Assembly (NCBI GenBank): GCA_965224735.1 | Contig: OZ245059.1 | Span: forward strand, 2,361-34,360 | Direction of reading: 5' to 3' | Source: Robiginitomaculum sp. | GTDB taxonomy: Bacteria; Pseudomonadota; Alphaproteobacteria; Caulobacterales; Maricaulaceae | DNA length: 32,000 bases | Part shown: positions 1 through 25,559 of the stretch, in pieces | Position numbering within the stretch: position 1 is the stretch's first letter | How the letters are laid out: each line of letters starts with the position of its first letter | Translations under genes and position numbers: made by a program | The notes under the pieces: model-generated | The model's input: the letters and a program-made list of their open reading frames with translations, nothing else | Database searches by the model: none | Told to the model about the DNA's origin: nothing

Positions 1-385
1 AATTGGGGGCAAAGGCAAAATTATGCGGCATAGCATTTTCAGATCCAAGTGCGCGCGTGCGCCACGCTTCAAGTTCCACAAGTGATAAAAGTTTACTCTT
101 GTCTATATCAGCAGATGTAAAAGCCACTTCTATGCCTGCCCGAACTTCTGATTTATCTATGGTATAATCACCATTATTGTCAAAACTTGCAAATAAAAGC
201 GCGCCGATGCGCGGAACAAGGGCACTATCTGCGCTTAACTCAAACGCAGAAACATTATCCAATGTTTTAATAGTCCCTAAAGTTTTATCGCTAATATCAG
301 GCCGAGGTGTTCCAGTTACAATTTGCGCGCTTGCATTTAATCCAAGCAACAAACAACAAACAGCTCCCAATACAAATAGACGCAT
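1..385 (-). CDS. Secreted EF-hand calcium-binding protein, N-terminal part (gene runs off the window start)
   Basis: Open-ended, so absent from the ORF track. Reverse-strand ATG at 385-383 is followed by 128 stop-free codons. MRLFVLGAVCCLLLGLNASAQ is signal-peptide-like. FDNNGDYTIDKSEV fits the 12-residue EF-hand loop (D-x-N-x-D-x-T-x-D-x-x-E), and ADIDKSKLLSLVE is a second, degenerate loop. Confidence 0.55.
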   Translation of the reverse strand, partial: MRLFVLGAVCCLLLGLNASAQIVTGTPRPDISDKTLGTIKTLDNVSAFELSADSALVPRIGALLFASFDNNGDYTIDKSEVRAGIEVAFTSADIDKSKLLSLVELEAWRTRALGSENAMPHNFAFAPN

Positions 386-466
386 ATTTCTCTCGCAATT
401 TACTAAGCCTAAATTGACCGCCCGAGCGTTAAAACGCAAGTGAAAATAGCATAATATTATGTCCCC

Positions 467-1066
467 TTAGAAAGGACGCCGGCTTGCCATTGCAGCCGTA
501 ATCGTCCCATCGTCTAAATAATCAAGCTCGCCGCCAACGGGAACGCCGTGCGCAAGCCGCGTTACCTTCACTGCACATGCGCGCAGATGATCCGTGATAT
601 AATGCGCCGTGGTTTGCCCGTCTATGGTCGCATTCATCGCAAGGATGACCTCACTTACATTATCATCTGCCGCACGCATGATAAGCACGGCAATGTTTAA
701 ATCTTCGGGGCGAATACCATCAAGAGCTGACAAACAGCCCCCTAAAACATGATACCGCCCGCGAAAGGCTGCGGCACGCTCCATAGCCCAAAGATCACCA
801 ACCTCTTGCACAACACAAATTATGCTACTATCGCGCCCTAACGCTGAGCAAATATGACAAGGATCCATCACATCTATATTCCCGCATACTTGACATGGTT
901 TTATTTTCTCACCAGCCTGCGCCAAGGCATCTGAAAGAGGTATCAATAATTTCTCTCGCTCTTTGACAAGCGCTAGCGCCGCGCGCCGAGCCGAGCGCGG
1001 GCCAAGGCCTGGCAATTTTGCCAACAAACTGATTAACCTTTCAATTTCCGCGCCTTTGGCAGACAT
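467..1066 (-). CDS. recR: Recombination protein RecR
   Basis: [28 protein letters not shown] (HhH), C4 zinc finger [16 protein letters not shown] and a Toprim-like C-terminus. The track ORF was trimmed to the internal Met that begins the conserved N-terminus. Confidence 0.93.
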
Positions 1067-1223
1067 GTTCTCTCCGCATGTATGGTGATTCGCACAAAGC
1101 CTAATCCAGCACAAAAATACCCGCAAGTTTTCTTTAAATGTTGATTAACCTTGATAGTCGCCCAATTGGCTCAATATTTGCTTTGCCTTATTGTGAACAC
1201 AATATATTTTTAAGGAATGCACC

Positions 1224-1556
1224 ATGGTAGGACAGTATTTAGCCGCAATTATAATGTTTTTTCTCACCATCAGCTTCACAGCGATGTTTTTTCTACCGCC
1301 GCTTAAAATAAAACTACGAAGCGCATTGGTTAATTTCTATTGGGTTGGTGTCTGGCTATTCCTTGGCGGCATTACAGCAATGGCTGGCTCGCAGGCCGTC
1401 CTGAATATAATGGGCCTAAACATTAATACGATAAGTAACGCTGTAATTTTTGGAATTTCAACGTCCTTCGTGCTCTTCGTTATGTTCGCATGGGGGCGGT
1501 TGACCTTGAAAGGCCTTGCCATGGTCTCGGGTAAAAAAAATAAAATAGAAAATTAA
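1224..1556 (+). CDS. Small hydrophobic membrane protein, function unknown
   Basis: 110 aa with 3-4 hydrophobic segments. AAGGA lies ~8 nt upstream of the ATG. No family recognised. Confidence 0.45.
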   Translation: MVGQYLAAIIMFFLTISFTAMFFLPPLKIKLRSALVNFYWVGVWLFLGGITAMAGSQAVLNIMGLNINTISNAVIFGISTSFVLFVMFAWGRLTLKGLAMVSGKKNKIEN

Positions 1557-2614
1557 CCACCAGCAAGCGGCGGCAGTGCCAAAAAGTCAAGCGGCTCTTG
1601 CGTAACTGGTTTGCTCGGCACTGCACGGCTTGTAGAAACAGGCACGTCAGGGTTTTTTAAATTATCAGGAGCAGTTTGAAGGCGCGGTACAGATGTCATT
1701 TTGGTTAAATCATCATGGAGATTACCATAAAGAGATTGCTGCTTTGCAGTCGCTATATCTGGCCTAGGGATAGGCGCAGGCATCTGTCTTTGTGGCAGCA
1801 TATGAGCCAATGGCGCCCGCTGTTGTCTTGATGCTTGTTTCGGTTGAGGGTGTAGCCTCATTTGCCTTTGCATGTTTAGCGGGCGATCCATAGGCGTTCT
1901 GAGCGCCGCTGCTTGTTGTGCTCGCAGCATCATTTGTCTTTGTTGCTGTCTTTGAAGCTCCGCTTGCGTCACGCTTTTTTGACCGGGCGGTAAAGGTTGT
2001 TGTTGAGGATTTCCATAAATACGCGGTTTGCGCGGATCAATGACCCGTGTTTGCGGGCTTACTGGTTGCGGCAGTTTATAATTTGCAAAAACGGGTGCAA
2101 AAGCTTGCATGTTTCTTCGCATGGGCGCTCTTTTGAGCTGTGCTCTGGGAGCTGAAATTGGCTGGCGCCGCACTATCCTCCTAGAGCTTTGCTGCACAGA
2201 CCTTTGCGGCACAGAGCTTGGCTTTGGATGAGTTACCACAGGTGTGCCAACCCGAACCGTATGTGCTCCAGCCGCTACCGCACGGCTCATCAGGCGATCA
2301 ATATCCGTAGTGGATTGCCCGCTAATACTGATAGGGCTTGAAACTGGGGTTGCGATCTCAGAATTAAACTCGCATATTCCCGAGCGCGCTTGCACATTTA
2401 CACGTACAAAATTCCAACCTCGGCACTGAGCATCCCCTTGGCATTGTTGTTTACATTGCCAAGGTGAGGTCGCCGCAATTTTCAAATAGGGTTTGCCCGG
2501 GCGATAAGTACTCTGATCTGCGGCTTGTGCGTCAAAAGTCAGGAATGGAGCCATCCCAAATACCAGTCCAGATACCAGTCCAGATATAAGAGCAAAAGAT
2601 GTAAAACGGCTCAT
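1553..2614 (-). CDS. Secreted PAN/Apple-like domain protein with long P/Q/R-rich tail
   Basis: Signal peptide MSRFTSFALISGLVSGLVFGMAPFLTFDAQA. Cys pattern CKQQCQGDAQCRGWNF...GICEF resembles PAN/Apple. The C-terminal ~250 aa is low-complexity Q/P/R-rich. Start moved to the ATG at 2614, which is preceded by GGAGG. Confidence 0.6.
   Translation of the reverse strand: MSRFTSFALISGLVSGLVFGMAPFLTFDAQAADQSTYRPGKPYLKIAATSPWQCKQQCQGDAQCRGWNFVRVNVQARSGICEFNSEIATPVSSPISISGQSTTDIDRLMSRAVAAGAHTVRVGTPVVTHPKPSSVPQRSVQQSSRRIVRRQPISAPRAQLKRAPMRRNMQAFAPVFANYKLPQPVSPQTRVIDPRKPRIYGNPQQQPLPPGQKSVTQAELQRQQQRQMMLRAQQAAALRTPMDRPLNMQRQMRLHPQPKQASRQQRAPLAHMLPQRQMPAPIPRPDIATAKQQSLYGNLHDDLTKMTSVPRLQTAPDNLKNPDVPVSTSRAVPSKPVTQEPLDFLALPPLAGG
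2562..2585. repeat. 12-bp perfect tandem repeat x2 in the signal-peptide region of the PAN-domain gene
   Basis: ACCAGTCCAGAT x2 encodes SGLV x2. Confidence 0.9.
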
Positions 2615-2743
2615 AGCTACCTCCAAAAACGAATCAATTAGGAGCAGTCTTGATAAAAGGCCTTAGGAATGGGTTAATGCGATCCGTCTCCAGTTTCTCT
2701 AATATAAGTATATGTATAGTCTGCTATAGTTTGAGCCTAAATC

Positions 2744-3415
2744 TTATAGTGGCGCTGCAACCAACATAGCCCAGTAAGTTTGGTATGTGGTTTTGGGTTC
2801 ATAAACCAGGGCAATGCCAAATTCTGTAACATCAGCACGCAGTAAATTTTCGTTATGACCAGAGCTTTTTTGCCAAGCCATAAAAACTTCACCCCAACTT
2901 TTTTGACCTGTCGCTACATTTTCGGCCGCTATAGAAAATTCAGAATAACCCTGCCTTTGTAGCCGTTCGCCATGACCGGAACCATCACTACCCGTATGGG
3001 AAATTATGCCGTGCTTTGCCAAATCAGTAGCGTGAGTTTTTGACGCTGCGCTAAGTGCTGTATTTAAAACAACAGGCGAGCGACCATGCCGCGCGCGATA
3101 TGCGTTCAAATCAGCCAAGGCAATGTTTAAATTAAGCGGCGCGGGCGGCACGGAAGGAAATTGTGGGTTAGCACCAAAACCATTATTAAGGCTACAGAAC
3201 ATAATGGGTTTAGAAATATCAGCTTGCTCAACAACCGTGCCTCGGCATTTTCCGTTATCTGCCTTGCACAGCGCCGTACACGCTTCAAAAGAGCTTACTT
3301 CTATTTGTTTATAGGTTCCATCATCAGGAAAGGTACTCACACTGCTGTCACTGTTTTTCGCATAGACCCTCATGTCAAGAAAAAACATGAAAACCAAAAC
3401 AATGAACAGGCGCAC
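2744..3415 (-). CDS. Secreted CAP/SCP (PR-1-like) domain protein with N-terminal PAN/Apple-like Cys module
   Basis: Signal peptide, then CTALCKADNGKCRG...FCSLN. The CAP-type region follows: YRARHGRSPVVLNTALSAASKTHATDLAKHGIISHTGSDGS...ENVATG...WQKSSGHNENLL. Confidence 0.7.
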   Translation of the reverse strand: MRLFIVLVFMFFLDMRVYAKNSDSSVSTFPDDGTYKQIEVSSFEACTALCKADNGKCRGTVVEQADISKPIMFCSLNNGFGANPQFPSVPPAPLNLNIALADLNAYRARHGRSPVVLNTALSAASKTHATDLAKHGIISHTGSDGSGHGERLQRQGYSEFSIAAENVATGQKSWGEVFMAWQKSSGHNENLLRADVTEFGIALVYEPKTTYQTYWAMLVAAPL

Positions 3416-3680
3416 CTAGAAACTCCATAAGAATGTAGCCTCCCGTTCTTAATACTTTTCGTTAAATATAGATTAAAGTTCTCACTTTTCATAATTCTAT
3501 ACCAAAGCAGGTAGAAACGGCCAAGTCGCAAAAATTAGATGCGAACGAGCCTTAGAAGTGAACGGGCGGCGACGGCAGACTGTACACATAGTTACCTCTC
3601 CACAATACTCGCCAAAGGCATGGCCAGAGAACCAATAGTGCCAAAACCAATAGTAAAAGTCTAATCATCAAAACAATCCT

Positions 3681-4553
3681 TTATAGTATCCGTTTAATCG
3701 ACGTAATTACTCCTGTGGTTTGTGCAATACGCGCCGCAGCGTCTCTAAGCGGCTCTATCGCGACGCACATATGGTGTGCATTGGCGTGGAGCAACATTTC
3801 TCTATCGCCCATAATCCCCACATGCCCCGTCCAAAAAATTAGATCGCCGCGCACAAGACCTGTCAATTTTTCCGTGATTTCAACGGATGTACCAAGGGTT
3901 GTTTCTTGCATACCCGCATCGCGCGGCGCATCCAGACCGCATGCCCGTAGCGCAGTTTGCACTAAGCCCGAACAGTCAACTCCGTCAGGCGATACACCTC
4001 CCCATATATAAGGGAGGCCAAAATGTAACTCAGCCGCTTCAACAAAATCTGTTGGCTCTTGTCCAAGTTCTACAACATGGTTTTTATGCACATAGCCTAC
4101 ATCAAGCATTCTAATATAATCCCCCTCCTCGTCCTCCGCCAATAATTTTGCGTTCATTGGCAAAGAGGTGCGAATAGCGGATTTAAAATTTGCTTTCAAA
4201 AATGCGGGTGCACGCAAATTGCTGATGCGGTGAGTGGGTTCATAGCGGCTTGGCATGAGCGCCATTTTAGGCACATACCCCACATAGCCTTTTCTGTCCG
4301 CCTGCACTTCTTGACCCCATAGCCACGAACCGTGCAAATCATAAACATCAAATTCACTGCCGATAAGCAGCTGCGTTTCCATCATTGATGCATTCGCAGG
4401 TTTATTGTGTAGCGGCACGACGGGCATACGCACTTGGTAGCGCACGGCAGGAACATAGGTTTTCGCATCTACTTTGCCTTCAAGATACGCGGCAGCCACA
4501 TTTTCATTATAGGCATTTACTCTTGGATCAAGTTTGTTGTCTAATTTGCTCAT
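3681..4553 (-). CDS. NlpC/P60 (C40) family peptidase with N-terminal SH3-like region
   Basis: YIWGGVSPDGVDCSGLVQTALRACG (catalytic Cys) followed by GDLIFWTGHVGIMG...LLHANAHH (His). Confidence 0.85.
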   Translation of the reverse strand: MSKLDNKLDPRVNAYNENVAAAYLEGKVDAKTYVPAVRYQVRMPVVPLHNKPANASMMETQLLIGSEFDVYDLHGSWLWGQEVQADRKGYVGYVPKMALMPSRYEPTHRISNLRAPAFLKANFKSAIRTSLPMNAKLLAEDEEGDYIRMLDVGYVHKNHVVELGQEPTDFVEAAELHFGLPYIWGGVSPDGVDCSGLVQTALRACGLDAPRDAGMQETTLGTSVEITEKLTGLVRGDLIFWTGHVGIMGDREMLLHANAHHMCVAIEPLRDAAARIAQTTGVITSIKRIL

Positions 4554-8813: not shown

Positions 8814-9716
8814 TAGTCCGACAGTGTGCTGGTGTTGTGTATAGTGATCTGTCAACCAAGGAGGTTTTATGGGACAAGTATTACACGAAAGCGCCAAGAC
8901 GACGTACATTACGAGAGCAGGGCTACAGCGATCGCAAGCTTCAACCCAAGCATTAGCCTTGCAATACGGGTTGAATGTGAAAACGATTGCGAAATGGCGC
9001 AAACGCGATTTCACGCATGATGTCGCGATGGGGCCAAAGAAACGATCTTCGAGAATGTTGAGCTGTAAGTGTTGAGCATTGAAGAGGAAGCTATGTGTGT
9101 GGCGTTTCGCCAGCATACATTACTGCCTCTTGATGATTGTCTGTATGCTTTGCAAGAGACGCTTCCTCATCCCTCCAGATCCGCTCTACACCGCTGTTAT
9201 CAGCGCCACGGTATAAGCCGTCTCCCCAACCCGAAAAATGACAAACCTGCAAAGAAGGTGTTCAAGACATATCCAATAGGGTATTTTCATGTTGATATTG
9301 CCAAAGTGCGCACAGAGGAAGGGAAACTCTACATGTTTGTTGGCATAGAGCGGACATCGAAATATGCATATGTTGAATTGCACGCGCGGCAAACGAAAAT
9401 GGTTGCTGCAGCATTTTTACGTAAGCTAATCACAACCGTGCCTTATAAAATCCACACCCTTCTTACTGATAACGGGATACAGTTCACCAATCGCAAACAA
9501 GATAAATATGCTGGCATACATATCTTTGATCATGTGTGTCACGAACATGACATCCAGCACCGCCTGACGAAAACCCAGCACCCTTGGACGAATGGACAGG
9601 TGGAACGCATGAACCGTACCCTCAAAGGCCTCACGCCTTACGAATATATTTGCAAAATATCTACAAAGGAGCCACAACGGTTTAACGTAAACCCATACCA
9701 GCACACTGTGGGACTA
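8814..9716 (+). mobile_element. Degenerate IS481-family insertion sequence
   Basis: Terminal inverted repeats TAGTCCGACAGTGTGCTGG (8814-8832) and CCAGCACACTGTGGGACTA (9699-9716), 18/19 complementary, enclose the transposase reading frames. Confidence 0.75.
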
Positions 9717-9746
9717 GGGTCAGGACTCATTAAAGCCAATATATAA
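8869..9746 (+). pseudogene. IS481-family DDE transposase, split by a frameshift with a probable internal deletion
   Basis: The HTH part (8869-9075, ...LALQYGLNVKTIAKWRKR) and the integrase-core part (9069-9746, ...LLTDNGIQFTN...HPWTNGQVERMNRTLK) are in different frames. ERMNRTLK joins directly to GLTPYEYICK, where family members normally carry ~30 more residues. Confidence 0.75.
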
Positions 9747-14141: not shown

Positions 14142-15209
14142 TTATTTTTCTAAAAAAGCAATTTCTTTAATGGCTTTTTTCGCGGCTGTTCGCCAATCTG
14201 TTGCGATTGCTCGTACAGGCGGATTAAGACTTTCGATGAGTGATACGGCCTCTTTAATATTTCCATTTCGCACAAACTCTAATGCGGCATCAATACTTAC
14301 GCGCGGGTTAGGCGTTTCATTGTCACGAACTTTCACATGTTTGGCGAGCGTTCGTTGAAGCCAGCTTGGTTTTTCAGCAGCCAAAGCTTCCTGAGCGCTA
14401 ACAGTGCTGAGCATTTTTTCACGCGGGAAAGTTTCAATCAAGATAGTAAGAATTTCAGCCTTAGTTGGTTTCTCGGTTTGTTTGGGAAGCTCAATCGGTT
14501 TGCTGTCTGGAATGGGAAAGGTTGCGGCGGGTTTAGTGTTTTCCAGTGCGGCGAGTCTATCTTCAAGCGCAGAAAACATGTCCGTAGCTTTGCCCGTAGC
14601 TTCAAGTGTGTCAATACGGGTAAGCAGAGCAGAGAGATCAGGGCCGCTTTTACCATCTTTAGGCTTTAGAGTTGCTAGGGATTTAATATCTGATTTGAGT
14701 GCCTCTATTTCTTGTCCGTAATCGGGCGCATCTTCTAATGGCTTTTGCGCAGCAATTTCTGCCTTAAAAATTGTTAGCTCTGATGCAGTTTTAGTTGTGG
14801 TTTGTTTGTTCTGTTGTGTCTCGGTCTGCAAAGTTTTGATTTTGGCATCAAGTGCAACGATACGCTGTTCCGCTTTGCCTAAATTTGTTTGGTATTGGTT
14901 ACGGATTTGCGAAAGACTCGCTTTCAAAGTATCAACCGTATGATCTGATTTGTTTAAATACTTCATACCTCCAATACCCAGCGCTCCGCCTGCAAGCGCG
15001 GCTATGAGAGACGAAGTAAGCAATGTTGCGAAATCTATGCTTTTTTTAGTCTTGGGTTTTGCTTTTGTCTTGGGTTTTGCTTTTAAGGTTTTAGGGTGCG
15101 ATTTTTCAGTCAGTGGTTTTTCAGTCAGTGGTTTTTCAGTCAGTGGTTTTTGCGCAGTTTTATCAACCTTGTCGTTTTTCTTCTGTGTTATGTCTTCATT
15201 GCTCATCAT
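14142..15209 (-). CDS. Alphaproteobacterial Mic60/mitofilin-like protein
   Basis: Lys-rich N-terminus with PLTEK repeats, one TM (SSLIAALAGGALGIGGM) and a long coiled-coil region. The C-terminus (...IDAALEFVRNGNIKEAVSLIESLNPPVRAIATDWRTAAKKAIKE) resembles the mitofilin signature. Start set at the ATG at 15209, preceded by GGAG. Confidence 0.6.
   Translation of the reverse strand: MMSNEDITQKKNDKVDKTAQKPLTEKPLTEKPLTEKSHPKTLKAKPKTKAKPKTKKSIDFATLLTSSLIAALAGGALGIGGMKYLNKSDHTVDTLKASLSQIRNQYQTNLGKAEQRIVALDAKIKTLQTETQQNKQTTTKTASELTIFKAEIAAQKPLEDAPDYGQEIEALKSDIKSLATLKPKDGKSGPDLSALLTRIDTLEATGKATDMFSALEDRLAALENTKPAATFPIPDSKPIELPKQTEKPTKAEILTILIETFPREKMLSTVSAQEALAAEKPSWLQRTLAKHVKVRDNETPNPRVSIDAALEFVRNGNIKEAVSLIESLNPPVRAIATDWRTAAKKAIKEIAFLEK
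15049..15084. repeat. 18-bp perfect tandem repeat x2 in the mic60-like gene
   Basis: GTCTTGGGTTTTGCTTTT x2 encodes KAKPKT x2. Confidence 0.9.
15106..15150. repeat. 15-bp perfect tandem repeat x3 in the mic60-like gene
   Basis: TCAGTCAGTGGTTTT x3 encodes (KPLTE)x3 on the minus strand. Confidence 0.9.
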
Positions 15210-15307
15210 ATACTCCGCAACTAGCATACGCCTCACAACAGAGTTCTACAAGAACTATCGACACTCAAACATTGCGCAGTAGTACCGCAACACGCTATTG
15301 GGTGTTT

Positions 15308-18274: not shown

Positions 18275-21200
18275 ATGTATCTGAGGAAATCATTTTTAGC
18301 AGGGCTTGTTATAAATTCTTTCTCTGTTGCTTCGACCGCATTTTCAGCTACACCGCCAATAATACAAATTTCAGGGCAAAGAACAACCACCTATGAAAAT
18401 ACTTATGAAACGATAGCACCGTCATCAACAATAACTATGGAAGATAATTCAGGGCATTCCCAGCCACGCACATGGCATTATGAGTTTGTTGGTGATTTTC
18501 AAATAGTTTCTGTGAACGGGCCAAGAGACGATGTGTTTAATAACACCAAAGTTGAGAGATTTGATGATGGGAAGGTTGAGGTTATAACCAATCCACTTGG
18601 CCATCAAAACCGGTTTAAGTATGATAACACCCGAAATTTAATTTCACATACAGACGCCAACGGCGTCATAGATACATTTTCATATGATGGAAAGCTTCTG
18701 GTTGCTTATACCTATGCCGCAGGTTCCGCTCTTTCAGGCACAACAAGGTTGGCATATAACGCTGATGGCAAAATAACTCAGATTAATTTACCCCAGGATC
18801 AAGTTATTAGAGACACTCTTGATGATGAGGGGAATTACACCGATAGAGCCTATACAATCATTGCTCAGATATTCCAAAAAACCAGCTCACAAGGTTTAAA
18901 CAGGCTTTTCAAAAGGAAGGTGGGAGATGGTGGTCGAAACTTACCGCGTGAATTAACCCCATCACACGCAGCGAGTTCTCAAGAAGTAGATAGTCAGGGA
19001 AGATTAATTAAAAGTTATGATTTTTTGGGCGGCATTACAGAATACCGCTATAATGAGTTCGGAAATTTATCAGAAATGAAGCCGGCAGGAGGGGCGGTCA
19101 CACGATTTGAGTATAATGGATTTAATGAGATAGTTCGCAAAAAAAGTACCGATCGGGGTGTAACAACATTTGAGTATGACCAAGCGGGAAACAAAACCAA
19201 GGAAGTTCGTGCAGGGGGTTTCATCATAAAGAGAAAGTATGATGCTTTAAACCGATTGACGAGAAAAGTGTTCAAGCAAAACGGAGTGGATAAAAAAGTT
19301 ACCCGATATGTCTATGATAAGTGTAAAAATGGGATTGGCCGTGTTTGCAAAATTTCGGATTTCAGTGGGGTCACTAAGTTTCGTTATAATCTATTAGGGC
19401 ATTATAAGGCGGTGTCTGTAAAATATGCTGGTGAGGCTAATTTTAACACGGTCCGGTATTTTTATGGCGATGCTGGGCGTCTTGATAAGGTGCGTTATCC
19501 AACAGGGCTAATTGTTAGATACAGGTATTCAGATGCTGGATTTGTTAAAAAAATTACGGGCAGGTACGATACTGGTGAGGATAGGCAAAGGTTTGTTATA
19601 GCCAAAAACATTGAATTTGATCCTTTGTCAGGACAATTAACAAAATTTGTTTATGGCAACGCAATCAAGACAAGGGTTAAGCTTAATAAGGAAGCTGATA
19701 TATCAAAATTGATTGTTCGTAAGGACGGGGTAGTTATGGATAGATCAACTTACAACTATGATAAAAACGGCAATATAACCCACATTAATCGCCTTGACCC
19801 TGAACAAAGCCAAAACTTTTCTTATGATGCTCTTGGCAGATTAGTGGGTGAACAGCGCGGTATAAACAGCCAACAATCAACGTCTGTGTCCTATAGTTAT
19901 GATGCGAGGGGAAATCGTATTCGCAAAACTGATCTGAAAAAAACCAAAACCTATACTTACTCACCAAAAACAAACAGATTAACCCAAATCAACAAACAGG
20001 CTTTGCTCTATGACGCAAGGGGTAATTTGCTTGAGGACCGAGGTGGTAAGCGTGCTTTTTCATACGATGTGACGGGCCGTATGACGGGGTATTATAAGCG
20101 CGGAAAGCTAAAGGCCCGTTATAGCTATAATGCTTTGGGTCAACGCGTTTCAAAAACCATTCACCGCCCTGCAAAGAAAAATGACACCTATAAAAGTCTT
20201 CATTTTTCATACACCCCACGCGGAAAGCTTTTATCTGAATTTGGCCAAAACAGCCGTAATGCACGAACATTTACCAGGGAATATGTCTGGCTTGGCAACA
20301 AGCCTTTAGCGCAAATTGAAAGAACCATTAATAAGAAAGGCAAAACCAAAAAAACCAACATATATTATCTGCATTCAGACCATCTCAATACCCCTCGCTC
20401 TGCTAGCAATCAAAATGGAGAAATTGTTTGGCAATGGAATAGTGATGCTTTTGGCGTAGGAAAAGCCAACCGTGATGTCAATAATAACGGTAAGAAAGTT
20501 GCCATACGTCTACGTTTTCCTGGTCAATATTATGACGTAGAAAGCGGCCTGTCATACAATCACCACCGGGATTATGATCCAAAGATCGGCCGCTATATTC
20601 AACCTGATCCCATTGGGCTGGGCGGCGATGTAAATCCTTATGCCTATGTGGGTAGTAACCCTTTGAGTTACAGTGACCCTAATGGACTAAAGACATGCAC
20701 AGGCAGTAGAATTCAACGCTCAGACAGTTACAACTGCGGCGGTATGAGTAACGTTGAGTGTTTTGGCAATTGCAGCGGTTTTGGTGGACTAGCAAGAACA
20801 ACGAGGGGTTTTTGTGACGAGGGTGGCTGTACCGTAGAGGGCACGAGAAGTACGAATACTCCTGGGCATACATATTTAACATCAAATGTCGTATGCCGCA
20901 ATGCAGGCCTGGTATCCAATGCACAGCAAAAAAACCTTATGGCATGGTTTACCGTACCAAAGTTTTTTCCTTATATTGTCGACGTGCGAACTGGCACAGC
21001 AGAGACAGAGTACTTTGTATCCCATCCTGATACTGGGGTGCCAGGGGGTTTTGTAACCTCAGAATTAACACCTGATGGACTGTCGGGCACAAATGAAACT
21101 GTTCTAGGCAAGCATATATTCCAAGGGACGGTAACCCGTACATTGACAACAGTGAATGGGCAGCTTGTAATTGCTACATTCGGGACTGGAACATCAGATT

Positions 21201-21304
21201 CTGAAACGATGGATGCCTTGAACACTTGGTTAGGGCCTGGTATATTTAATGCATTAGACAAACACGCCGCCGACCGTCTAAGACGAACTTTTTCAGGATG
21301 TTAA
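18275..21304 (+). CDS. RHS/YD-repeat polymorphic toxin with Sec-type signal peptide and unassigned Cys-rich C-terminal domain
   Basis: YD repeats run throughout (FKYDNTRNLISHTDANG, FSYDALGRLV, YSYDARGNRI, LLYDARGNLL, FSYDVTGRMT, YSYNALGQRV). RHS core: YYLHSDHLNTPRSASNQNGEIVWQWNSDAFG...RFPGQYYDVESGLSYNHHRDYDPKIGRYIQPDPIGLGG. PxxxxDPxGL motif PLSYSDPNGL has its DPNGL at nt 20675-20689. The N-terminus MYLRKSFLAGLVINSFSVASTAFSA is signal-peptide-like. Confidence 0.9.
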   Translation: MYLRKSFLAGLVINSFSVASTAFSATPPIIQISGQRTTTYENTYETIAPSSTITMEDNSGHSQPRTWHYEFVGDFQIVSVNGPRDDVFNNTKVERFDDGKVEVITNPLGHQNRFKYDNTRNLISHTDANGVIDTFSYDGKLLVAYTYAAGSALSGTTRLAYNADGKITQINLPQDQVIRDTLDDEGNYTDRAYTIIAQIFQKTSSQGLNRLFKRKVGDGGRNLPRELTPSHAASSQEVDSQGRLIKSYDFLGGITEYRYNEFGNLSEMKPAGGAVTRFEYNGFNEIVRKKSTDRGVTTFEYDQAGNKTKEVRAGGFIIKRKYDALNRLTRKVFKQNGVDKKVTRYVYDKCKNGIGRVCKISDFSGVTKFRYNLLGHYKAVSVKYAGEANFNTVRYFYGDAGRLDKVRYPTGLIVRYRYSDAGFVKKITGRYDTGEDRQRFVIAKNIEFDPLSGQLTKFVYGNAIKTRVKLNKEADISKLIVRKDGVVMDRSTYNYDKNGNITHINRLDPEQSQNFSYDALGRLVGEQRGINSQQSTSVSYSYDARGNRIRKTDLKKTKTYTYSPKTNRLTQINKQALLYDARGNLLEDRGGKRAFSYDVTGRMTGYYKRGKLKARYSYNALGQRVSKTIHRPAKKNDTYKSLHFSYTPRGKLLSEFGQNSRNARTFTREYVWLGNKPLAQIERTINKKGKTKKTNIYYLHSDHLNTPRSASNQNGEIVWQWNSDAFGVGKANRDVNNNGKKVAIRLRFPGQYYDVESGLSYNHHRDYDPKIGRYIQPDPIGLGGDVNPYAYVGSNPLSYSDPNGLKTCTGSRIQRSDSYNCGGMSNVECFGNCSGFGGLARTTRGFCDEGGCTVEGTRSTNTPGHTYLTSNVVCRNAGLVSNAQQKNLMAWFTVPKFFPYIVDVRTGTAETEYFVSHPDTGVPGGFVTSELTPDGLSGTNETVLGKHIFQGTVTRTLTTVNGQLVIATFGTGTSDSETMDALNTWLGPGIFNALDKHAADRLRRTFSGC
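20074..20816 (+). repeat. 743-bp direct repeat, copy A (inside main rhs)
   Basis: Line-by-line comparison with 22384-23126 (offset 2310) shows no mismatch. The first differences are at 20817-20818 versus 23127-23128. Confidence 0.9.
20690..21301 (+). other. C-terminal (post-DPNGL) putative toxin domain of the main RHS, 204 aa, no recognised family
   Basis: It lies after the autoproteolysis-type motif. It has 8 Cys, 6 of them in the first ~47 aa, and the final residue is Cys. Two further variant copies lie downstream. Confidence 0.6.
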
Positions 21305-21305
21305 T

Positions 21306-21782
21306 ATGATGAAAACTAAAATAATTTCTATACAGTATTTGATATTTATTTTACCTGTTATGCTTTTGGCTGGTTGTGGTTATGGCACGGCTCTTAAGTA
21401 TAAACTCGAAGCGCCTGTCAACTATAGGTTAAAAATAACTGCCGATACTTCGCAACAAGCGGAACTTGATCTTAGACAGGCATTTATGCAGGAAAACTTA
21501 CAACTTGTTCGATATCGCCCCTACGATGATATAGATAGAAGTTATTATATATTTCACAGCAGTAGCAATATACATGTCAAATTACTTAATAGTCGGGGCC
21601 ATAAAAGTGCCATTGTTGCAATATATCCCGCCCGGCTCGCCTCTGTTTCATCCAAACTAAGAGCGCAATTGGAACAACGCGAAGAGGCACTCCTGCGTAT
21701 AGAGAAACAGCTAAAACAAACCGATAGTTTCTCCAAATATATACCCTCAGAGTGGGAAAGGGAATACAATATTTATAAGTGA
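21306..21782 (+). CDS. Putative immunity lipoprotein I1 (cognate to main CT)
   Basis: The ATG lies 1 nt after the toxin stop (TGT TAA T ATG), with AGGA 8 nt upstream. Lipobox LLAGC. It is a member of a 5-copy paralog family in this locus. Confidence 0.7.
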   Translation: MMKTKIISIQYLIFILPVMLLAGCGYGTALKYKLEAPVNYRLKITADTSQQAELDLRQAFMQENLQLVRYRPYDDIDRSYYIFHSSSNIHVKLLNSRGHKSAIVAIYPARLASVSSKLRAQLEQREEALLRIEKQLKQTDSFSKYIPSEWEREYNIYK

Positions 21783-21797
21783 AAATTGGTGAGGGCC
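21779..21797 (+). repeat. Cassette junction motif J1
   Basis: GTGAAAATTGGTgAGGGCC, spanning the immunity stop codon and the start of the next cassette. Confidence 0.85.
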
Positions 21798-21864
21798 TGG
21801 CATATTTAATGCATTAGACAAACACGCCGCAGACCGTCTAAGACGAGTTTTCTCAGGATGTTAA
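21793..21864 (+). pseudogene. Toxin-tail stub R1 (last 23 codons plus stop of an rhs CT)
   Basis: GPGIFNALDKHAADRLRRVFSGC* is homologous to 21233-21304. An in-frame TGA precedes it, and there is no start codon. Confidence 0.85.
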
Positions 21865-21865
21865 T

Positions 21866-22363
21866 ATGATAAAAACAATTGTCCGCCTAAAATATTTGGT
21901 CTTTATGTTACCGTTCGCGCTTATGGCTGGATGCGGTTATGATACAGCACTTAAGTACAAAACCAAAGGATCTACCAGCTATAGGTTAAAAATAACTGCC
22001 GAGACCCCGCAACAAGCGGAACTTGATCTTAGACAGGCATTTCTGCAGGAAAACTTACAACTTGTTCGCCATCACCTCTACAATGATATAGATAGAAGTT
22101 ATGCTATCTTTCACAGCAGTAGCTATATATATGTCAAATTACGTAATAGTGAAGGTTTTAGAAGAGCCATTGTTGCAATATATCCCGCCCGGCTCGCCTC
22201 TGTTTCATCCAAACGAAGAGCGCAATTGGAACAACGCGAAGAGGCACTTCTGCGTATAGAGAAACAGCTGAAACAAACCGATAGTTTCTCCAAATATATA
22301 CCCTCAGAATGGGAAAGAGACTACATGCACACCCTCAGAACGGGAAAGCCGCCGCTACAATAA
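21866..22363 (+). CDS. Putative immunity lipoprotein I2 (no full-length toxin partner)
   Basis: Lipobox LMAGC. Paralog of I1. The C-terminus is altered by a 31-bp imperfect duplication (…WERDYMHTLRTGKPPLQ*). Confidence 0.65.
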   Translation: MIKTIVRLKYLVFMLPFALMAGCGYDTALKYKTKGSTSYRLKITAETPQQAELDLRQAFLQENLQLVRHHLYNDIDRSYAIFHSSSYIYVKLRNSEGFRRAIVAIYPARLASVSSKRRAQLEQREEALLRIEKQLKQTDSFSKYIPSEWERDYMHTLRTGKPPLQ

Positions 22364-22369
22364 GTATAA

Positions 22370-22388
22370 GTGAAAATTGGTTAGGGCC
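22370..22388 (+). repeat. Cassette junction motif J2
   Basis: GTGAAAATTGGTTAGGGCC, joined to rhs sequence at GGGCC|GTATGACGGGG. Confidence 0.85.
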
Positions 22389-23126
22389 GTATGACGGGGT
22401 ATTATAAGCGCGGAAAGCTAAAGGCCCGTTATAGCTATAATGCTTTGGGTCAACGCGTTTCAAAAACCATTCACCGCCCTGCAAAGAAAAATGACACCTA
22501 TAAAAGTCTTCATTTTTCATACACCCCACGCGGAAAGCTTTTATCTGAATTTGGCCAAAACAGCCGTAATGCACGAACATTTACCAGGGAATATGTCTGG
22601 CTTGGCAACAAGCCTTTAGCGCAAATTGAAAGAACCATTAATAAGAAAGGCAAAACCAAAAAAACCAACATATATTATCTGCATTCAGACCATCTCAATA
22701 CCCCTCGCTCTGCTAGCAATCAAAATGGAGAAATTGTTTGGCAATGGAATAGTGATGCTTTTGGCGTAGGAAAAGCCAACCGTGATGTCAATAATAACGG
22801 TAAGAAAGTTGCCATACGTCTACGTTTTCCTGGTCAATATTATGACGTAGAAAGCGGCCTGTCATACAATCACCACCGGGATTATGATCCAAAGATCGGC
22901 CGCTATATTCAACCTGATCCCATTGGGCTGGGCGGCGATGTAAATCCTTATGCCTATGTGGGTAGTAACCCTTTGAGTTACAGTGACCCTAATGGACTAA
23001 AGACATGCACAGGCAGTAGAATTCAACGCTCAGACAGTTACAACTGCGGCGGTATGAGTAACGTTGAGTGTTTTGGCAATTGCAGCGGTTTTGGTGGACT
23101 AGCAAGAACAACGAGGGGTTTTTGTG
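22384..23126 (+). repeat. 743-bp direct repeat, copy B (5' part of orphan 1)
   Basis: Identical to 20074-20816. Confidence 0.9.
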
Positions 23127-23629
23127 GTGAGGGTGGCTGTACCGTAGAGGGCACGAGACAACGTACGCCTCCTTCTGCTCCTGGACATATATATTCAACA
23201 TCAAATGTCGTATGCCGCAATGCAGGCCTGGTATCCAATGCACAGCAAAAAAACCTTATGGCATGGTTTACCGTACCAAAGTTTTTTCCTTATATTGTGG
23301 ACGTGCGAACTGGCACAGCTGGTGAAACAAGATATTTTGTAACGCACCCTGATACAGGCGTCCCAGGTGGTTATGTAACTTCAGAACTTTTTTCTGGCGG
23401 GCTGACAGGAAGAAATACAACTGTTGATAATTTGCATTTTTTTGCTGGCACTATCACACGTACACTGACAACAGTGAATGGGCAGCTTGTAATTTCTACG
23501 CTCGGTGTTGGAACATCAGATTTTGTGACGATAGATGCCATAAATAGTTTATTAGGCCCAGGTGTCTTTAATGCACTAGATCGGCATGCTGCCGACCGTC
23601 TAAGAAGGGCTTTCCCCGGATGCCAATAA
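22391..23629 (+). CDS. Orphan rhs C-terminal cassette 1 (last YD repeats, RHS core and a variant CT)
   Basis: 412-aa ORF that starts at an internal Met of the rhs frame (MTGYYKRGKLKARYSYNALGQRV...). It includes DPNGL (22985-22999) and a CT that diverges from the main CT mainly in its last ~100 aa. There is no N-terminal signal or shell. Confidence 0.85.
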   Translation: MTGYYKRGKLKARYSYNALGQRVSKTIHRPAKKNDTYKSLHFSYTPRGKLLSEFGQNSRNARTFTREYVWLGNKPLAQIERTINKKGKTKKTNIYYLHSDHLNTPRSASNQNGEIVWQWNSDAFGVGKANRDVNNNGKKVAIRLRFPGQYYDVESGLSYNHHRDYDPKIGRYIQPDPIGLGGDVNPYAYVGSNPLSYSDPNGLKTCTGSRIQRSDSYNCGGMSNVECFGNCSGFGGLARTTRGFCGEGGCTVEGTRQRTPPSAPGHIYSTSNVVCRNAGLVSNAQQKNLMAWFTVPKFFPYIVDVRTGTAGETRYFVTHPDTGVPGGYVTSELFSGGLTGRNTTVDNLHFFAGTITRTLTTVNGQLVISTLGVGTSDFVTIDAINSLLGPGVFNALDRHAADRLRRAFPGCQ

Positions 23630-24090
23630 TAAATAAAATGCTTGCTCTACGGAACTTTGCCTTCATGCTAACCTTTGTGTGTATTTCTGGATGCGGGTAT
23701 GATGTGGTCTTACAGTACAAAGCGAAAGCATCTGTAGGGTATAGATTGACAATCACCTCAGATACACCTCAACAGGCATCATCCTTTGTTAAACAAACAT
23801 TTTTGTCGGAAGACTTGGAACCCGTCCATCATATTGAATTTGATACAGTCGAAAGGTCTTATATCTATCACAATAGTAGTATGATAATGATCACATTAAA
23901 TCTCGATTTTAAAACAGCAAATATTGCAATATATCCTGCCCGGCTTAACTCTGTTTCATCCAAGCGAAGAGCACAATTGAAACAACGTGAAGAAGCAATA
24001 TTACGTATAAAGCAAGTGCTGGAGAAGTCCGATAGTTTCACCAAATATATACCCTCAGAGTGGGAAAGAGAATACAATATTTATAAGTGA
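23620..24090 (+). CDS. Putative immunity lipoprotein I3 (cognate to orphan 1; most divergent paralog)
   Basis: Lipobox CISGC. Conserved family blocks IYPARLNSVSSKRRAQLKQREEAILRI and DSFTKYIPSEWEREY. An alternative start at 23638 (MLALRNF...) would avoid overlapping the toxin stop. Confidence 0.7.
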   Translation: MPIINKMLALRNFAFMLTFVCISGCGYDVVLQYKAKASVGYRLTITSDTPQQASSFVKQTFLSEDLEPVHHIEFDTVERSYIYHNSSMIMITLNLDFKTANIAIYPARLNSVSSKRRAQLKQREEAILRIKQVLEKSDSFTKYIPSEWEREYNIYK

Positions 24091-24105
24091 AAATTGGTTA
24101 GGGCC
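24087..24105 (+). repeat. Cassette junction motif J3
   Basis: GTGAAAATTGGTTAGGGCC, joined to rhs sequence at GGCCTGGTAT|CCAATGC. Confidence 0.85.
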
Positions 24106-24503
24106 TGGTATCCAATGCACAGCAAAAAAACCTTATGGCATGGTTTACCGTACCAAAGTTTTTTCCTTATATTGTCGACGTGCGAACTGGCAGACAAGGT
24201 TTTACAGAGTACTTTGTATCCCATCCTGATACTGGGGTGCCAGGGGGGTTTGTAACCTCAGAATTAACGCTTGATGGACTGTCGGGCATAAATAAAACTG
24301 TTCCAGGCCGGCATATATTCGCAGGGGAGGTAACCCGTACACTGACAACAGTGAATGGGCAGCTTGTAATTGCTACATTCGGGACTGGAACATCAGATTC
24401 TGAAACAATGGATGTCTTGAACACTTGGTTAGGGCCTGGTATATTTAATGCATTAGACAAACACGCCGCCGACCGCCTAAAACGAGTTTTTTCAGGATGT
24501 TAA
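24102..24503 (+). pseudogene. Orphan rhs CT fragment 2 (last ~130 codons only; ORF from the ATG at 24135)
   Basis: Homologous to 20906-21304 of the main gene: (GLVSNAQQKNL)MAWFTVPKFFPYIVDVRTG...FSGC*. It has no RHS core or DPxGL, and a TAG lies just upstream in frame. Confidence 0.8.
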
Positions 24504-24504
24504 T

Positions 24505-24978
24505 ATGATAAAAAACTATATAACTCAATCGCGGTATTGTACCCTTATTGTGGCCTTCTTTCTGGTAGGATGCGGTTATGATACAATACTTAGGTACAAA
24601 AACGAAGTGCCTGTCAACTATAGGTTAAAAATAACTGCCGATACCCCGCAACAAGCGGAATTTGATCTTAGGCAGGCATTTCTGCAGGAAAACTTACAAC
24701 TCGTTCGCAATCACCTCTACAATGATATAGATAGAAGTTATTCTATCTTTCACAGCAGTAGCCATATATATGTTCAATTACGTAATAGTGAAGGTTTTAG
24801 AAGGCTTCTTGTTGGGGTATATCCTGCCCGGCTCACCTCTGTTTCATCCAAACTAAGAGCGCAATTGAAACAACGCGAAGAGGCAGTCCTGCGTATAGAA
24901 GAAAAACTAAAACAAACCGATAGTTTCACCAAATATATACCCTCAGAGTGGGAAAGAGAATACAATAAGTATAAGTGA
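24505..24978 (+). CDS. Putative immunity lipoprotein I4 (I1-type)
   Basis: Same TGT TAA T ATG coupling as I1. Lipobox FLVGC. Family blocks are conserved. Confidence 0.7.
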   Translation: MIKNYITQSRYCTLIVAFFLVGCGYDTILRYKNEVPVNYRLKITADTPQQAEFDLRQAFLQENLQLVRNHLYNDIDRSYSIFHSSSHIYVQLRNSEGFRRLLVGVYPARLTSVSSKLRAQLKQREEAVLRIEEKLKQTDSFTKYIPSEWEREYNKYK

Positions 24979-24993
24979 AAATTGGTTAGGGCC
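24975..24993 (+). repeat. Cassette junction motif J4
   Basis: GTGAAAATTGGTTAGGGCC, followed by TGGTATATTTAATGC (toxin tail). Confidence 0.85.
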
Positions 24994-25060
24994 TGGTATA
25001 TTTAATGCATTAGACAAACACGCTGCTGACCGTCTAAGACGAGTTTTCTCAGGATGTTAA
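24989..25060 (+). pseudogene. Toxin-tail stub R2
   Basis: GPGIFNALDKHAADRLRRVFSGC*, 72 nt, homologous to 21233-21304. Confidence 0.85.
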
Positions 25061-25061
25061 T

Positions 25062-25559
25062 ATGATAAAAACAATTGTCCGCCTAAAATATTTGGTCTTT
25101 ATTTTACCTGTTATGCTTTTGACTGGATGCGGTTATGATACAGCACTTAAGTACAAAACCAAAGGATCTACCAGCTATAGGTTAAAAATAACTGCCGATA
25201 CCCCGCAACAAGCGGAATTTGATCTTAGGCAGGCATTTCTGCAGGAAAACTTACAACTCGTTCGCCATCACCTCTACGATGATATAGATAGAAGTTATGC
25301 TATCTTTCACAGCAGTAGCTATATATATGTTCAATTACTTAATAGTGAAGGTTTTAGAAGTGCCATTGTTGCAATATACCCTGCCCGGCTCGCCTCTGTT
25401 TCATCCAAACTAAGAGCGCAATTGGAACAACGCGAAGAGGCACTCCTGCGTATAGAGAAACAGCTAAAACAAACCGATAGTTTCTCCAAATATATACCCT
25501 CAGAGTGGGAAAGAGACTACATGCACACCCTCAGAACGGGAAAGCCGCCGCTACAATAA
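25062..25559 (+). CDS. Putative immunity lipoprotein I5 (I2-type, mosaic)
   Basis: Lipobox LLTGC. It has the same derived C-terminus as I2. The signal-peptide segment ILPVMLL matches I1 rather than I2. Confidence 0.65.
   Translation: MIKTIVRLKYLVFILPVMLLTGCGYDTALKYKTKGSTSYRLKITADTPQQAEFDLRQAFLQENLQLVRHHLYDDIDRSYAIFHSSSYIYVQLLNSEGFRSAIVAIYPARLASVSSKLRAQLEQREEALLRIEKQLKQTDSFSKYIPSEWERDYMHTLRTGKPPLQ

Follow-up and report, generated by a model that had tools for sequence, protein, structure and literature searches.

Rhs/YD polymorphic toxin loci with orphan C-terminal (CT)/immunity modules were catalogued by Zhang et al. (2012; PMC3482391). A locus of this kind, encoding a main Rhs protein of 1009 aa, lies in a 32-kb stretch of contig OZ245059.1 from Robiginitomaculum sp. 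(the window; positions are counted from its first letter). It shares with the catalogued loci the YD repeats, an Rhs core closed by DPxGL, a variable CT and a downstream immunity gene, as well as orphan cassettes that carry the 3' end of the core and CT displacement, the latter seen in a locus from a related strain (L001). The window carrier differs from the catalogued Rhs proteins in being short and in bearing a Sec signal only, with no PAAR, VgrG or type VI secretion system (T6SS) context. Its toxin falls in none of the catalogued Tox-/Ntox families, its immunity proteins are lipoproteins, and its alleles share the first third of the toxin domain, with the junction between them inside the domain rather than at DPxGL. 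The catalogue lists no START or helix-grip toxin, records lipoprotein immunity as exceptional (only Imm65), and files many signal-peptide-only RHS toxins under 'T2SS' (type II secretion system) export. The window locus is a genuine Rhs polymorphic toxin array, and its warhead is new to the catalogues.

The only literature precedent found for a helix-grip toxin is a single line in Burroughs, Nicastro and Aravind (2025, eLife; PMC12419801), which describes a START-domain-like helix-grip toxin tip on Cystatin-like/lipobox carriers and is repeated in a 2026 review of bacterial START proteins (PMC13525633). That tip resembles the one described here in being known from computation, in its C-terminal position, in its predicted lipid target, and in its membrane or periplasmic immunity. 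Its carrier is Cystatin-like with a lipobox where ours is an Rhs protein; the two tips are compared by description only, and their sequence families may or may not match. Burroughs et al. report neither Rhs, two-partner secretion (TPS), Tc-like or portal-linked carriers nor a cysteine pattern or conserved residues. The ColM- and TelC-type lipid II toxins offer a functional analogy only: they act in the periplasm on a lipid-linked cell-wall precursor and are countered by envelope immunity, whereas neither their folds (ColM fold, Lipocone) nor their catalytic motifs are related to those of the window toxin, whose own substrate is a proposed one.

The best explanation for the CT tail of the main Rhs, which we rate a little above even, is a periplasm-acting, probably lipid-directed helix-grip toxin with lipoprotein immunity and intradomain allele exchange. 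CT numbering here covers the 204 residues after DPNGL (CT 1-204, nt 20690-21301), and the main gene comprises the following features:

18275 to 21304, + strand: main Rhs/YD polymorphic toxin gene, 1009 aa (Pfam, NCBIfam)
about 18275 to 18346, + strand: Sec-type signal peptide of the main Rhs, MYLRKSFLAGLVINSFSVASTAFS, cleaved before the following A (sequence)
20675 to 20689, + strand: DPNGL (aa 801-805), where the Rhs core ends and autoproteolysis is expected to free the toxin tip (sequence reading)
20690 to 20857, + strand: Cys-rich linker, CT 1-56, with Cys at 3, 16, 24, 28, 42 and 47 (sequence, relatives, model)
20858 to 21301, + strand: toxin domain, CT 57-204, about 148 aa, helix-grip (START/Bet v 1-like) (HMMER family, conservation, AlphaFold2 (AF2), Foldseek, Cys covariation)

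The carrier is matched by the Pfam models RHS_repeat (E=1e-36, across 8 stretches) and RHS (4.9e-7) and by the NCBIfam models TIGR01643 (YD_repeat_2x, E=7.7e-29) and TIGR03696 (Rhs_assc_core, E=5.9e-24), the last at aa 738-805. Cleavage at the DPxGL site is established for Rhs proteins generally. The Pfam scan found no PAAR or VgrG domain in the main Rhs, and none of the 19 neighbouring open reading frames (ORFs) scanned within the visible 32 kb encodes a T6SS component. Delivery by a T6SS was ruled out, there being no supporting gene or domain in the window. The G+C content of the locus is 41.6%, against 45.3% in its flanks. The window also encodes a YciI protein identical to one annotated in a Robiginitomaculum sp. 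metagenome-assembled genome, in keeping with a host in or near that genus.

An exhaustive HMMER profile search of 1.84 billion cluster representatives (50% identity) recovered 257 relatives of the domain at E<=1e-3 and 72 at E<=1e-10. Their common unit is CT 57-204, and most end at the C-terminus of the carrier or a few residues before it. Word-indexed homology searches returned only 3 proteins from the single sequence and 4, all on very short contigs, from a broader alignment, while a search of a genome collection for related loci gave one partial locus (L009). The preliminary description of this DNA had recognised no toxin motif by eye, and the database searches agree: the 204-aa CT has no match in Pfam, NCBIfam, PHROGs or PDB sequences, and 42 diverse members match no Pfam model at E<=1, the SRPBCC families (Polyketide_cyc, AHSA1, Bet_v_1, START) included. 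PDB sequences contain no relative of the domain by single sequence or by family profile, and neither the CT nor the 42 relatives match any catalogued Tox- or Ntox-type toxin family.

Rhs proteins with DPxGL make up about 41 of 152 carriers, and the two other full-length examples (P0060 and P0107) also have Sec signal peptides. The domain is further found on P0106, a TPS/filamentous-haemagglutinin (CdiA-like) protein, on P0105, a SpvB/Tc-like protein of 2234 aa, and in stand-alone signal-peptide forms (P0007 and L003). In L003 (1750-2628) a Sec signal ORF (1750-1905) lies in frame with the toxin ORF (1909-2628), with a single stop between them and a lipoprotein immunity homologue after them; this split could be a pseudogene, a sequencing error or a case of read-through. 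Since the domain caps unrelated carriers and is directly followed by a small ORF where the downstream sequence can be read, the arrangement is that of a polymorphic toxin/immunity pair. We assign the CT tail to a widespread uncatalogued family of toxin domains, with high confidence in both family and fold.

The first AF2 model, built from a 5-sequence alignment, was poor, with a predicted local distance difference test score (pLDDT) of 54. With a 43-sequence alignment, CT 40-204 was modelled at pLDDT 89.1 and a predicted template modelling score (pTM) of 0.83, with the topology beta-alpha-alpha-beta5-long alpha and a C-terminal helix of 29 residues. The elements of the model are strands (E) and helices (H) in the order E21-30, H38-47, H60-62, E68-72, E79-87, E93-98, E106-116, E119-129 and H133-161. 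Foldseek returned 55 matches in the PDB at E<=1e-3, and the best 50 of the 55 are START/Bet v 1/SRPBCC-type proteins and structural-genomics proteins of unknown function. The matches listed include Ara h 8, Bet v 1, the PYR/PYL abscisic-acid receptors, norcoclaurine synthase, the StfQ ARO/CYC cyclase and MLL2253; nearly all those listed have a Foldseek probability of 1.00, with template modelling (TM) scores of 0.26-0.58, mostly 0.4-0.56. Structure prediction and a fold search had been suggested in the preliminary description, which would have taken a clear match to a known toxin fold or family as a refutation; they gave a known fold, START/helix-grip, which is not an established toxin family. 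In the helix-grip fold a curved beta-sheet wraps a long C-terminal helix, and the pocket so enclosed usually takes a hydrophobic ligand.

Residue conservation and cysteine patterns were counted over 96 near-complete domains. The conserved positions are H60 (0.99), Y62 (0.91), C69 (0.96), P90 (1.00), G120 (1.00), N135 (1.00), T137 (0.95), H142 (1.00), G146 (0.99), R150 (0.96), T163 (0.96), G165 (0.99), G167 (0.98), N178 (0.99), F186 (0.97) and D190 (0.93). On the strands they stand at alternate positions, as in H142-x-F-x-G-x-V-x-R150, and along the C-terminal helix at a spacing of four (N178, G182, F186, D190), and the polar set H60, N135, T137, H142, R150, N178 and D190 occupies a single face of each strand or helix. 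This conserved polar face probably lines a pocket between the sheet and the helix. As a polar set would then sit inside a hydrophobic-ligand fold, the substrate recognised or cleaved may be amphipathic, for example a lipid phosphate or head group. The likeness to the START/Bet v 1/SRPBCC superfamily extends to the predicted fold, the order of secondary-structure elements and the solved-structure matches. In contrast to that superfamily, to which it has no detectable sequence relationship, the domain has six strands rather than seven, a putative external disulfide staple and a polar set of its own (H, N-x-T, H-x-F-x-G-x-x-x-R, N, D), and it belongs to secreted weaponry where START members serve cytosolic binding or biosynthesis.

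Direct reading confirmed the eight cysteines that had been counted after DPNGL, at CT 3, 16, 24, 28, 42, 47, 69 (in NVVCRNAG) and 204 (the last residue). They are a marked enrichment: the 204 aa of the CT hold 8, the 805 aa before them only 2 (Fisher p = 8e-5). The linker, whose pLDDT is low in the AF2 model, has likely disulfide loops that include a CTGSRI...C loop and an FC-x4-C hairpin, and its CTGSRI-x-C motif recurs in three relatives (L004, P0072 and P0101). Among 38 Rhs-type relatives the linker holds no cysteine in 7 cases, two in 30 and four in 1, and an odd number in none (0/38). Within the toxin domain the cysteines follow four patterns:

56/96 domains: C69 equivalent and a Cys within the last few residues
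32/96 domains: C69 and a second Cys five residues on (C-x5-C), with no C-terminal Cys
4/96 domains: neither Cys
4/96 domains: a lone C69, at least two of these domains apparently being cut short

C69 lies on the other face of its strand from the conserved H60, Y62, N66 and V68. As its partner switches place between subfamilies and both cysteines vanish together, C69 is read as half of a disulfide and not as a nucleophile. Given the even cysteine counts and covarying partners, the eight cysteines of the main CT are most readily explained as four disulfides, the likely pairs being 3-16, 24-28, 42-47 and 69-204. The last of these would staple Cys69, at the end of strand 1, to the final residue of the protein.

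The remainder of the array holds 5 paralogous small ORFs (I1 to I5, putative immunity genes), 2 orphan toxins and 3 toxin-3' remnants:

21306 to 21782, + strand: I1, putative cognate immunity lipoprotein, 158 aa, lipobox LLAGC at Cys24 (signal peptide)
21793 to 21864, + strand: remnant of the toxin 3' end, GPGIFNALDKHAADRLRRVFSGC and stop, between I1 and I2 (translation, blastn repeats)
21866 to 22363, + strand: I2, extra (orphan) immunity lipoprotein, 165 aa, near-identical to I5 (ORF, alignment)
22384 to 23629, + strand (ORF 22391-23629): orphan 1, with the last 205 Rhs-core codons, the linker and a divergent toxin-domain allele
23620 to 24090, + strand: I3, putative immunity partner of orphan 1, 156 aa; at 54% identity to I1 it diverges most among the paralogues
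24102 to 24503, + strand (ORF 24135-24503, 122 aa, starts MAWFTVP): orphan 2, a shortened toxin allele
24505 to 24978, + strand: I4, immunity lipoprotein 3' of orphan 2, 157 aa
24986 to 25060, + strand: second toxin-3' remnant, LGPGIFNALDKHAADRLRRVFSGC and stop (translation)
25062 to 25559, + strand: I5, extra immunity lipoprotein, 165 aa
25574 to 25651, + strand: third toxin-3' remnant, WLGPGIFDALDKHAADRLRRVFSGC and stop, then a decapitated immunity start (MMKN and stop), end of the array

I1 to I5 all have a signal peptide and a lipobox Cys followed by G-Y, and C-G-Y is invariant in 7 homologues; I1 has no match in Pfam, NCBIfam or PHROGs. Homologues of these lipoproteins lie downstream of the toxin in L003, L004 and L009. 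Toxins with a C-terminal Cys in L011, L014, L015 and L016 are followed by members of a second, unrelated-looking lipoprotein family; of these toxins, the one in L015 is carried on a visible Rhs C-terminus, and the ORFs of those in L011 and L014 extend past the ends of their contigs. Overall, the gene downstream of Rhs-type/C-terminal-Cys toxins encodes a signal peptide ending in Cys in 12/12 readable cases (I1-I5 of the window and one each in L003, L004, L009, L011, L014, L015 and L016), with a canonical lipobox in most of the 12 and a non-canonical AEYGC in L015. The window lipoprotein family shows no profile similarity to the second lipoprotein family or to the cytoplasmic proteins that accompany phage-linked relatives of the toxin; between the latter two there is a weak, suggestive similarity (hhalign probability 35%, E 4e-4). 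L009, from a Robiginitomaculum sp. metagenome-assembled genome (JAESQN010000024.1), encodes an immunity-family lipoprotein ending in ...KPFLPGC and, nearby, a 332-aa secreted Gly/Asp-rich protein ending in ...EPPGC (2793-3266 and 771-1769). These PGC endings echo the C-terminal PGC of the toxins, and a 27-residue toxin remnant precedes the L009 immunity gene.

Since an anchor in the periplasm confines neutralisation to the envelope, the toxin is expected to act there. Taken together, the lipoprotein immunity and the disulfides place the site of action of the Rhs-type toxins, with moderate confidence, in the periplasm or at the periplasm-facing membrane. The preliminary description had envisaged a disulfide-bonded protein working outside the cytoplasm, and the even linker cysteine counts, covarying partners, Sec signal and lipoprotein immunity genes all fit that view. 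Periplasm-acting T6SS effectors are described in PMC5792426 as depending on the DsbA of the target cell.

Orphan 1 is 92% identical to the main gene overall (blastn) and 100% identical in its Rhs-core part, while orphan 2 is 89% identical, its homology beginning at LVSNAQQ, and lacks strand 1 and part of helix 1. The DNA of main and orphan 1 is 100% identical from 20074 to the CT43 codon (D versus G), differs in a patch at 20824-20875, is then 97-100% identical to about 20995, and falls to 50-80% identity from there to the stop, save for one conserved island. Most of this had been noticed beforehand: the long identity past DPNGL (42 codons rather than the 43 reported), the divergent patch (TRSTNTPGHTYLTS versus TRQRTPPSAPGHIYSTS), the return of identity through ...IVDVRTG, and the clustering of differences in CT 103-204. 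Nei-Gojobori estimates of synonymous (dS) and non-synonymous (dN) divergence between the window copies are as follows:

main versus orphan 1, 205 Rhs-core codons: dS 0, dN 0, dN/dS not applicable
main versus orphan 1, CT 1-102: dS 0.06, dN 0.04, dN/dS 0.66
main versus orphan 1, CT 103-204: dS 1.0, dN 0.20, dN/dS 0.2
main versus orphan 2, CT 103-204: dS 0.09, dN 0.09, dN/dS about 1

At about 20995, then, dS between main and orphan 1 rises from 0.06 to 1.0. Recombination accounts for the late divergence: it has joined an old, purified allele of the C-terminal two-thirds of the domain to a homogenised N-terminal part, giving a mosaic. Positive selection on the tail of main versus orphan 1 was ruled out, dN/dS being 0.2 with saturated dS; the dN/dS of about 1 for orphan 2 may equally well reflect neutral drift of an unexpressed fragment. 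Recombination of the same kind is seen in L001 (ENA ERZ25083849 NODE_1305, 1-4500; aligned to window 18816-25559), a locus that matches main at 100% identity as far as about 20990 and orphan 1, again at 100%, beyond it, and that lacks the main CT tail, I1, I2 and the head of orphan 1. Its crossover falls within window 20875-20995. The switch of identity inside a shared stretch, together with the deleted segment, identifies L001 as a homologous recombinant between main and orphan 1.

Each immunity gene is followed by a copy of the last 5-26 codons of the toxin (ending WLGPGIFNALDKHAADRLRRVFSGC and stop), forming direct repeats like cassette borders, with short versions at about 22357-22385 and about 24086-24106. 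As direct repeats, these toxin-3' remnants can duplicate or delete cassettes.

No difference between the alleles falls on a family-conserved residue, and 10/11 of the strand-located differences are on the other side of the strand from the conserved residues (binomial p about 0.006). The three copies are, as had been proposed, alleles of one toxin family, and their differences avoid the conserved core. The further proposal that they are diversifying at an immunity-contact surface divides in two: diversification gives way to a mosaic with dN/dS of about 0.2 in CT 103-204, and the position of the differences is consistent with an outward-facing specificity surface that the immunity protein would read.

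The C-x5-C subfamily of the toxin, which ends in ...ERHHG, occurs with a small leaderless ORF inside head modules like those of HK97 or gene transfer agents (GTAs), between the terminase or portal gene and the protease or capsid genes. An IMG/VR viral contig carries one copy, and P0078 and P0062 are further members alongside these loci:

L005, 6001-7228: phage-linked toxin locus
L006, 6001-7240: phage-linked toxin locus
L007, 6001-7246: phage-linked toxin locus
L012, 4732-5818: phage-linked toxin locus

Read by eye, the N-terminal part of the phage-linked toxins is similar to the C-terminus of an HK97-type portal protein, and in P0078 (482 aa) portal and toxin seem to be fused directly. PHROGs has no match for the phage-linked relatives or their downstream ORFs. 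MuF phage-head polymorphic toxins (Jamet et al. 2017; PMC5576092) similarly combine a toxin and a small downstream ORF within head-morphogenesis modules (terminase, portal, protease, capsid). The present subfamily, a set of relatives and not the window locus itself, differs in having a portal-like rather than a MuF N-terminal part, and may be a portal-borne counterpart of the MuF toxins.

We propose that the Sec-exported Rhs of this Robiginitomaculum-like marine alphaproteobacterium carries a toxin tip releasable after DPNGL, in which disulfide loops would close a linker of about 56 aa ahead of the helix-grip domain of about 148 aa. The toxin would fold and oxidise in the periplasm of the target cell, where it would bind a lipid or lipid-linked envelope molecule and most likely attack it chemically, candidates being a phospholipid or a polyprenyl-phosphate-linked precursor. 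The cognate periplasm-facing lipoproteins I1 to I5 would block it. Homologous recombination within the domain would switch alleles, with the linker, strand 1 and helix 1 (the conserved N-terminal third) as homology arm and the allele-specific outward surface on the variable C-terminal 100 aa. Our confidence in the toxin chemistry is low. Only tentatively, and at well under even chances, do we suggest a helix-grip enzyme family used as an interbacterial and phage-borne weapon, which would modify or destroy a pocket-held lipid or polyprenyl-phosphate precursor from the periplasmic side through a His/His/Arg/Asn/Asp site unlike those of known lipid-targeting toxins. The same warhead would then be mounted on Sec-exported Rhs, CdiA-like, Tc-like and phage portal-linked proteins, with the window as its founding example.

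Several alternatives to a periplasmic, lipid-directed toxin were weighed. That the pocket merely binds lipid is unlikely, if the strongest of them: the domain might sequester an essential lipid (undecaprenyl phosphate, quinone or phospholipid), or insert into the inner membrane and dissipate the proton motive force. Most START/Bet v 1 proteins bind or carry rather than catalyse (PMC13525633; the Foldseek matches listed), and lipoprotein immunity and disulfides fit an envelope site. Against this, seven polar residues (two His, two Asn, Arg, Asp and Thr) are kept at 93-100% over 96 divergent domains, which is more typical of catalysis or polar head-group recognition than of a greasy pocket, and stoichiometric sequestration is a weak way to kill. 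Less probable still is an enzyme acting in the cytoplasm, whether a nuclease or RNase, activities that have been claimed for some PR-10/Bet v 1 proteins, or a small-molecule modifier, from which the Rhs lipoproteins would protect only during export. It would account for the small ORFs without signal peptides beside the phage-linked subfamily, for the CdiA/TPS-like P0106, since such carriers often deliver cytoplasmic toxins, and for the weak similarity of the second lipoprotein family to the phage-type cytoplasmic proteins. A periplasmic anchor cannot neutralise a cytoplasmic toxin, however, and all 12 immunity genes beside Rhs-type/C-terminal-Cys toxins are lipoprotein-like; the paired, covarying cysteines argue for an oxidising compartment, and no nuclease-like motif or family match was found.

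Two further readings are very improbable. The preliminary description had entertained a Cys/His hydrolase, here of papain/NlpC-P60-like type with Cys69 as nucleophile. Such an enzyme would suit the presence of C69 in 96% of domains and of two invariant His, and a periplasmic peptidoglycan amidase would suit lipoprotein immunity, but the partner of C69 varies in position by subfamily, 4/96 domains have lost both, C69 sits on the strand face opposite H60, Y62, N66 and V68, the predicted fold is helix-grip and not papain-like, and none of the 42 members has an NlpC/P60 or peptidase Pfam match. The Cys and His residues that description had found common to the three copies are indeed shared locally; across the family H142 (100%), D190 (93%) and C69 (96%) are kept, while H112 (in [ST]HPDTG) and H192 (in D[KR]HAADRL), two of its three 'conserved' His, are not. 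The hydrolase therefore gives way to C69 as a structural disulfide half. Just as doubtful is that the tail is no toxin and serves the Rhs cage as a structural plug, a linker or a C-terminal extension without cargo. Its toxin role is predicted, and a tip has to sit unfolded or compact within the cage; set against this are the recurrence of the domain at, or close to, the C-terminal end of unrelated carriers (Rhs, TPS, Tc-like and portal-linked), its existence as a Sec-signal stand-alone protein and in orphan cassettes, and the small co-varying ORF downstream wherever that can be read.

A number of points tell against the periplasmic, lipid-directed toxin that we prefer. Activity, ligand and target are predictions for every family member; TM-scores to solved START proteins are moderate, and no sequence profile ties the family to the SRPBCC models of Pfam. 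The proximity of C69 and C204 is deduced from covariation, and the pocket location of the conserved residues from periodicity, rather than from model coordinates. Main and orphan 1 show purifying selection (dN/dS 0.2), with no signal of positive selection for an immunity surface. The Sec-exported Rhs would still need some route across the outer membrane of a rival. Finally, the phage-linked C-x5-C toxins are followed by proteins of 115-135 aa without signal peptides, and these leaderless partners, with the CdiA-like carrier, leave room for a target reachable from the cytoplasm. A membrane lipid reachable from either face would reconcile the lipoprotein and leaderless partners.

Other features of the window lie outside or across the array. 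About 8.5 kb 5' of the Rhs locus (9069-9746) is a 225-aa ORF with a transposase/integrase core (rve), which may be an insertion sequence fragment. On the - strand, positions 1553-4553 hold an apparently exported set comprising a PAN-domain protein, a CAP/SCP (cysteine-rich secretory) protein and an NlpC/P60 peptidase with SH3, and positions 14142-15236 a 364-aa ORF without a Pfam match, with tandem repeats (PLTEK three times, KAKPKT twice) and a central hydrophobic segment. Antisense ORFs of 96-97 aa overlie the toxin domain of main (20971-21261, - strand) and of orphan 2 (24167-24460, - strand); they are conserved between the two, probably as a by-product of sense-strand conservation.

Much new enzymology, and many antibacterial targets, can be drawn from polymorphic toxin tips. 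The domain described here is absent from curated libraries yet common (257 clusters at 50% identity), and its confidently predicted fold normally holds lipids or other hydrophobic ligands. The locus offers an unusually clean natural case of replacement of an Rhs tip by an orphan, with the junction inside the toxin domain, and the recombination between window and L001 would mark the part of the toxin that carries immunity specificity. The phage-head link suggests that toxin cassettes are exchanged between secretion systems and virions or GTA-like particles. If the pocket holds an envelope lipid, the family would represent a novel periplasmic route to the killing of Gram-negative cells, with its substrate marking a vulnerable step.

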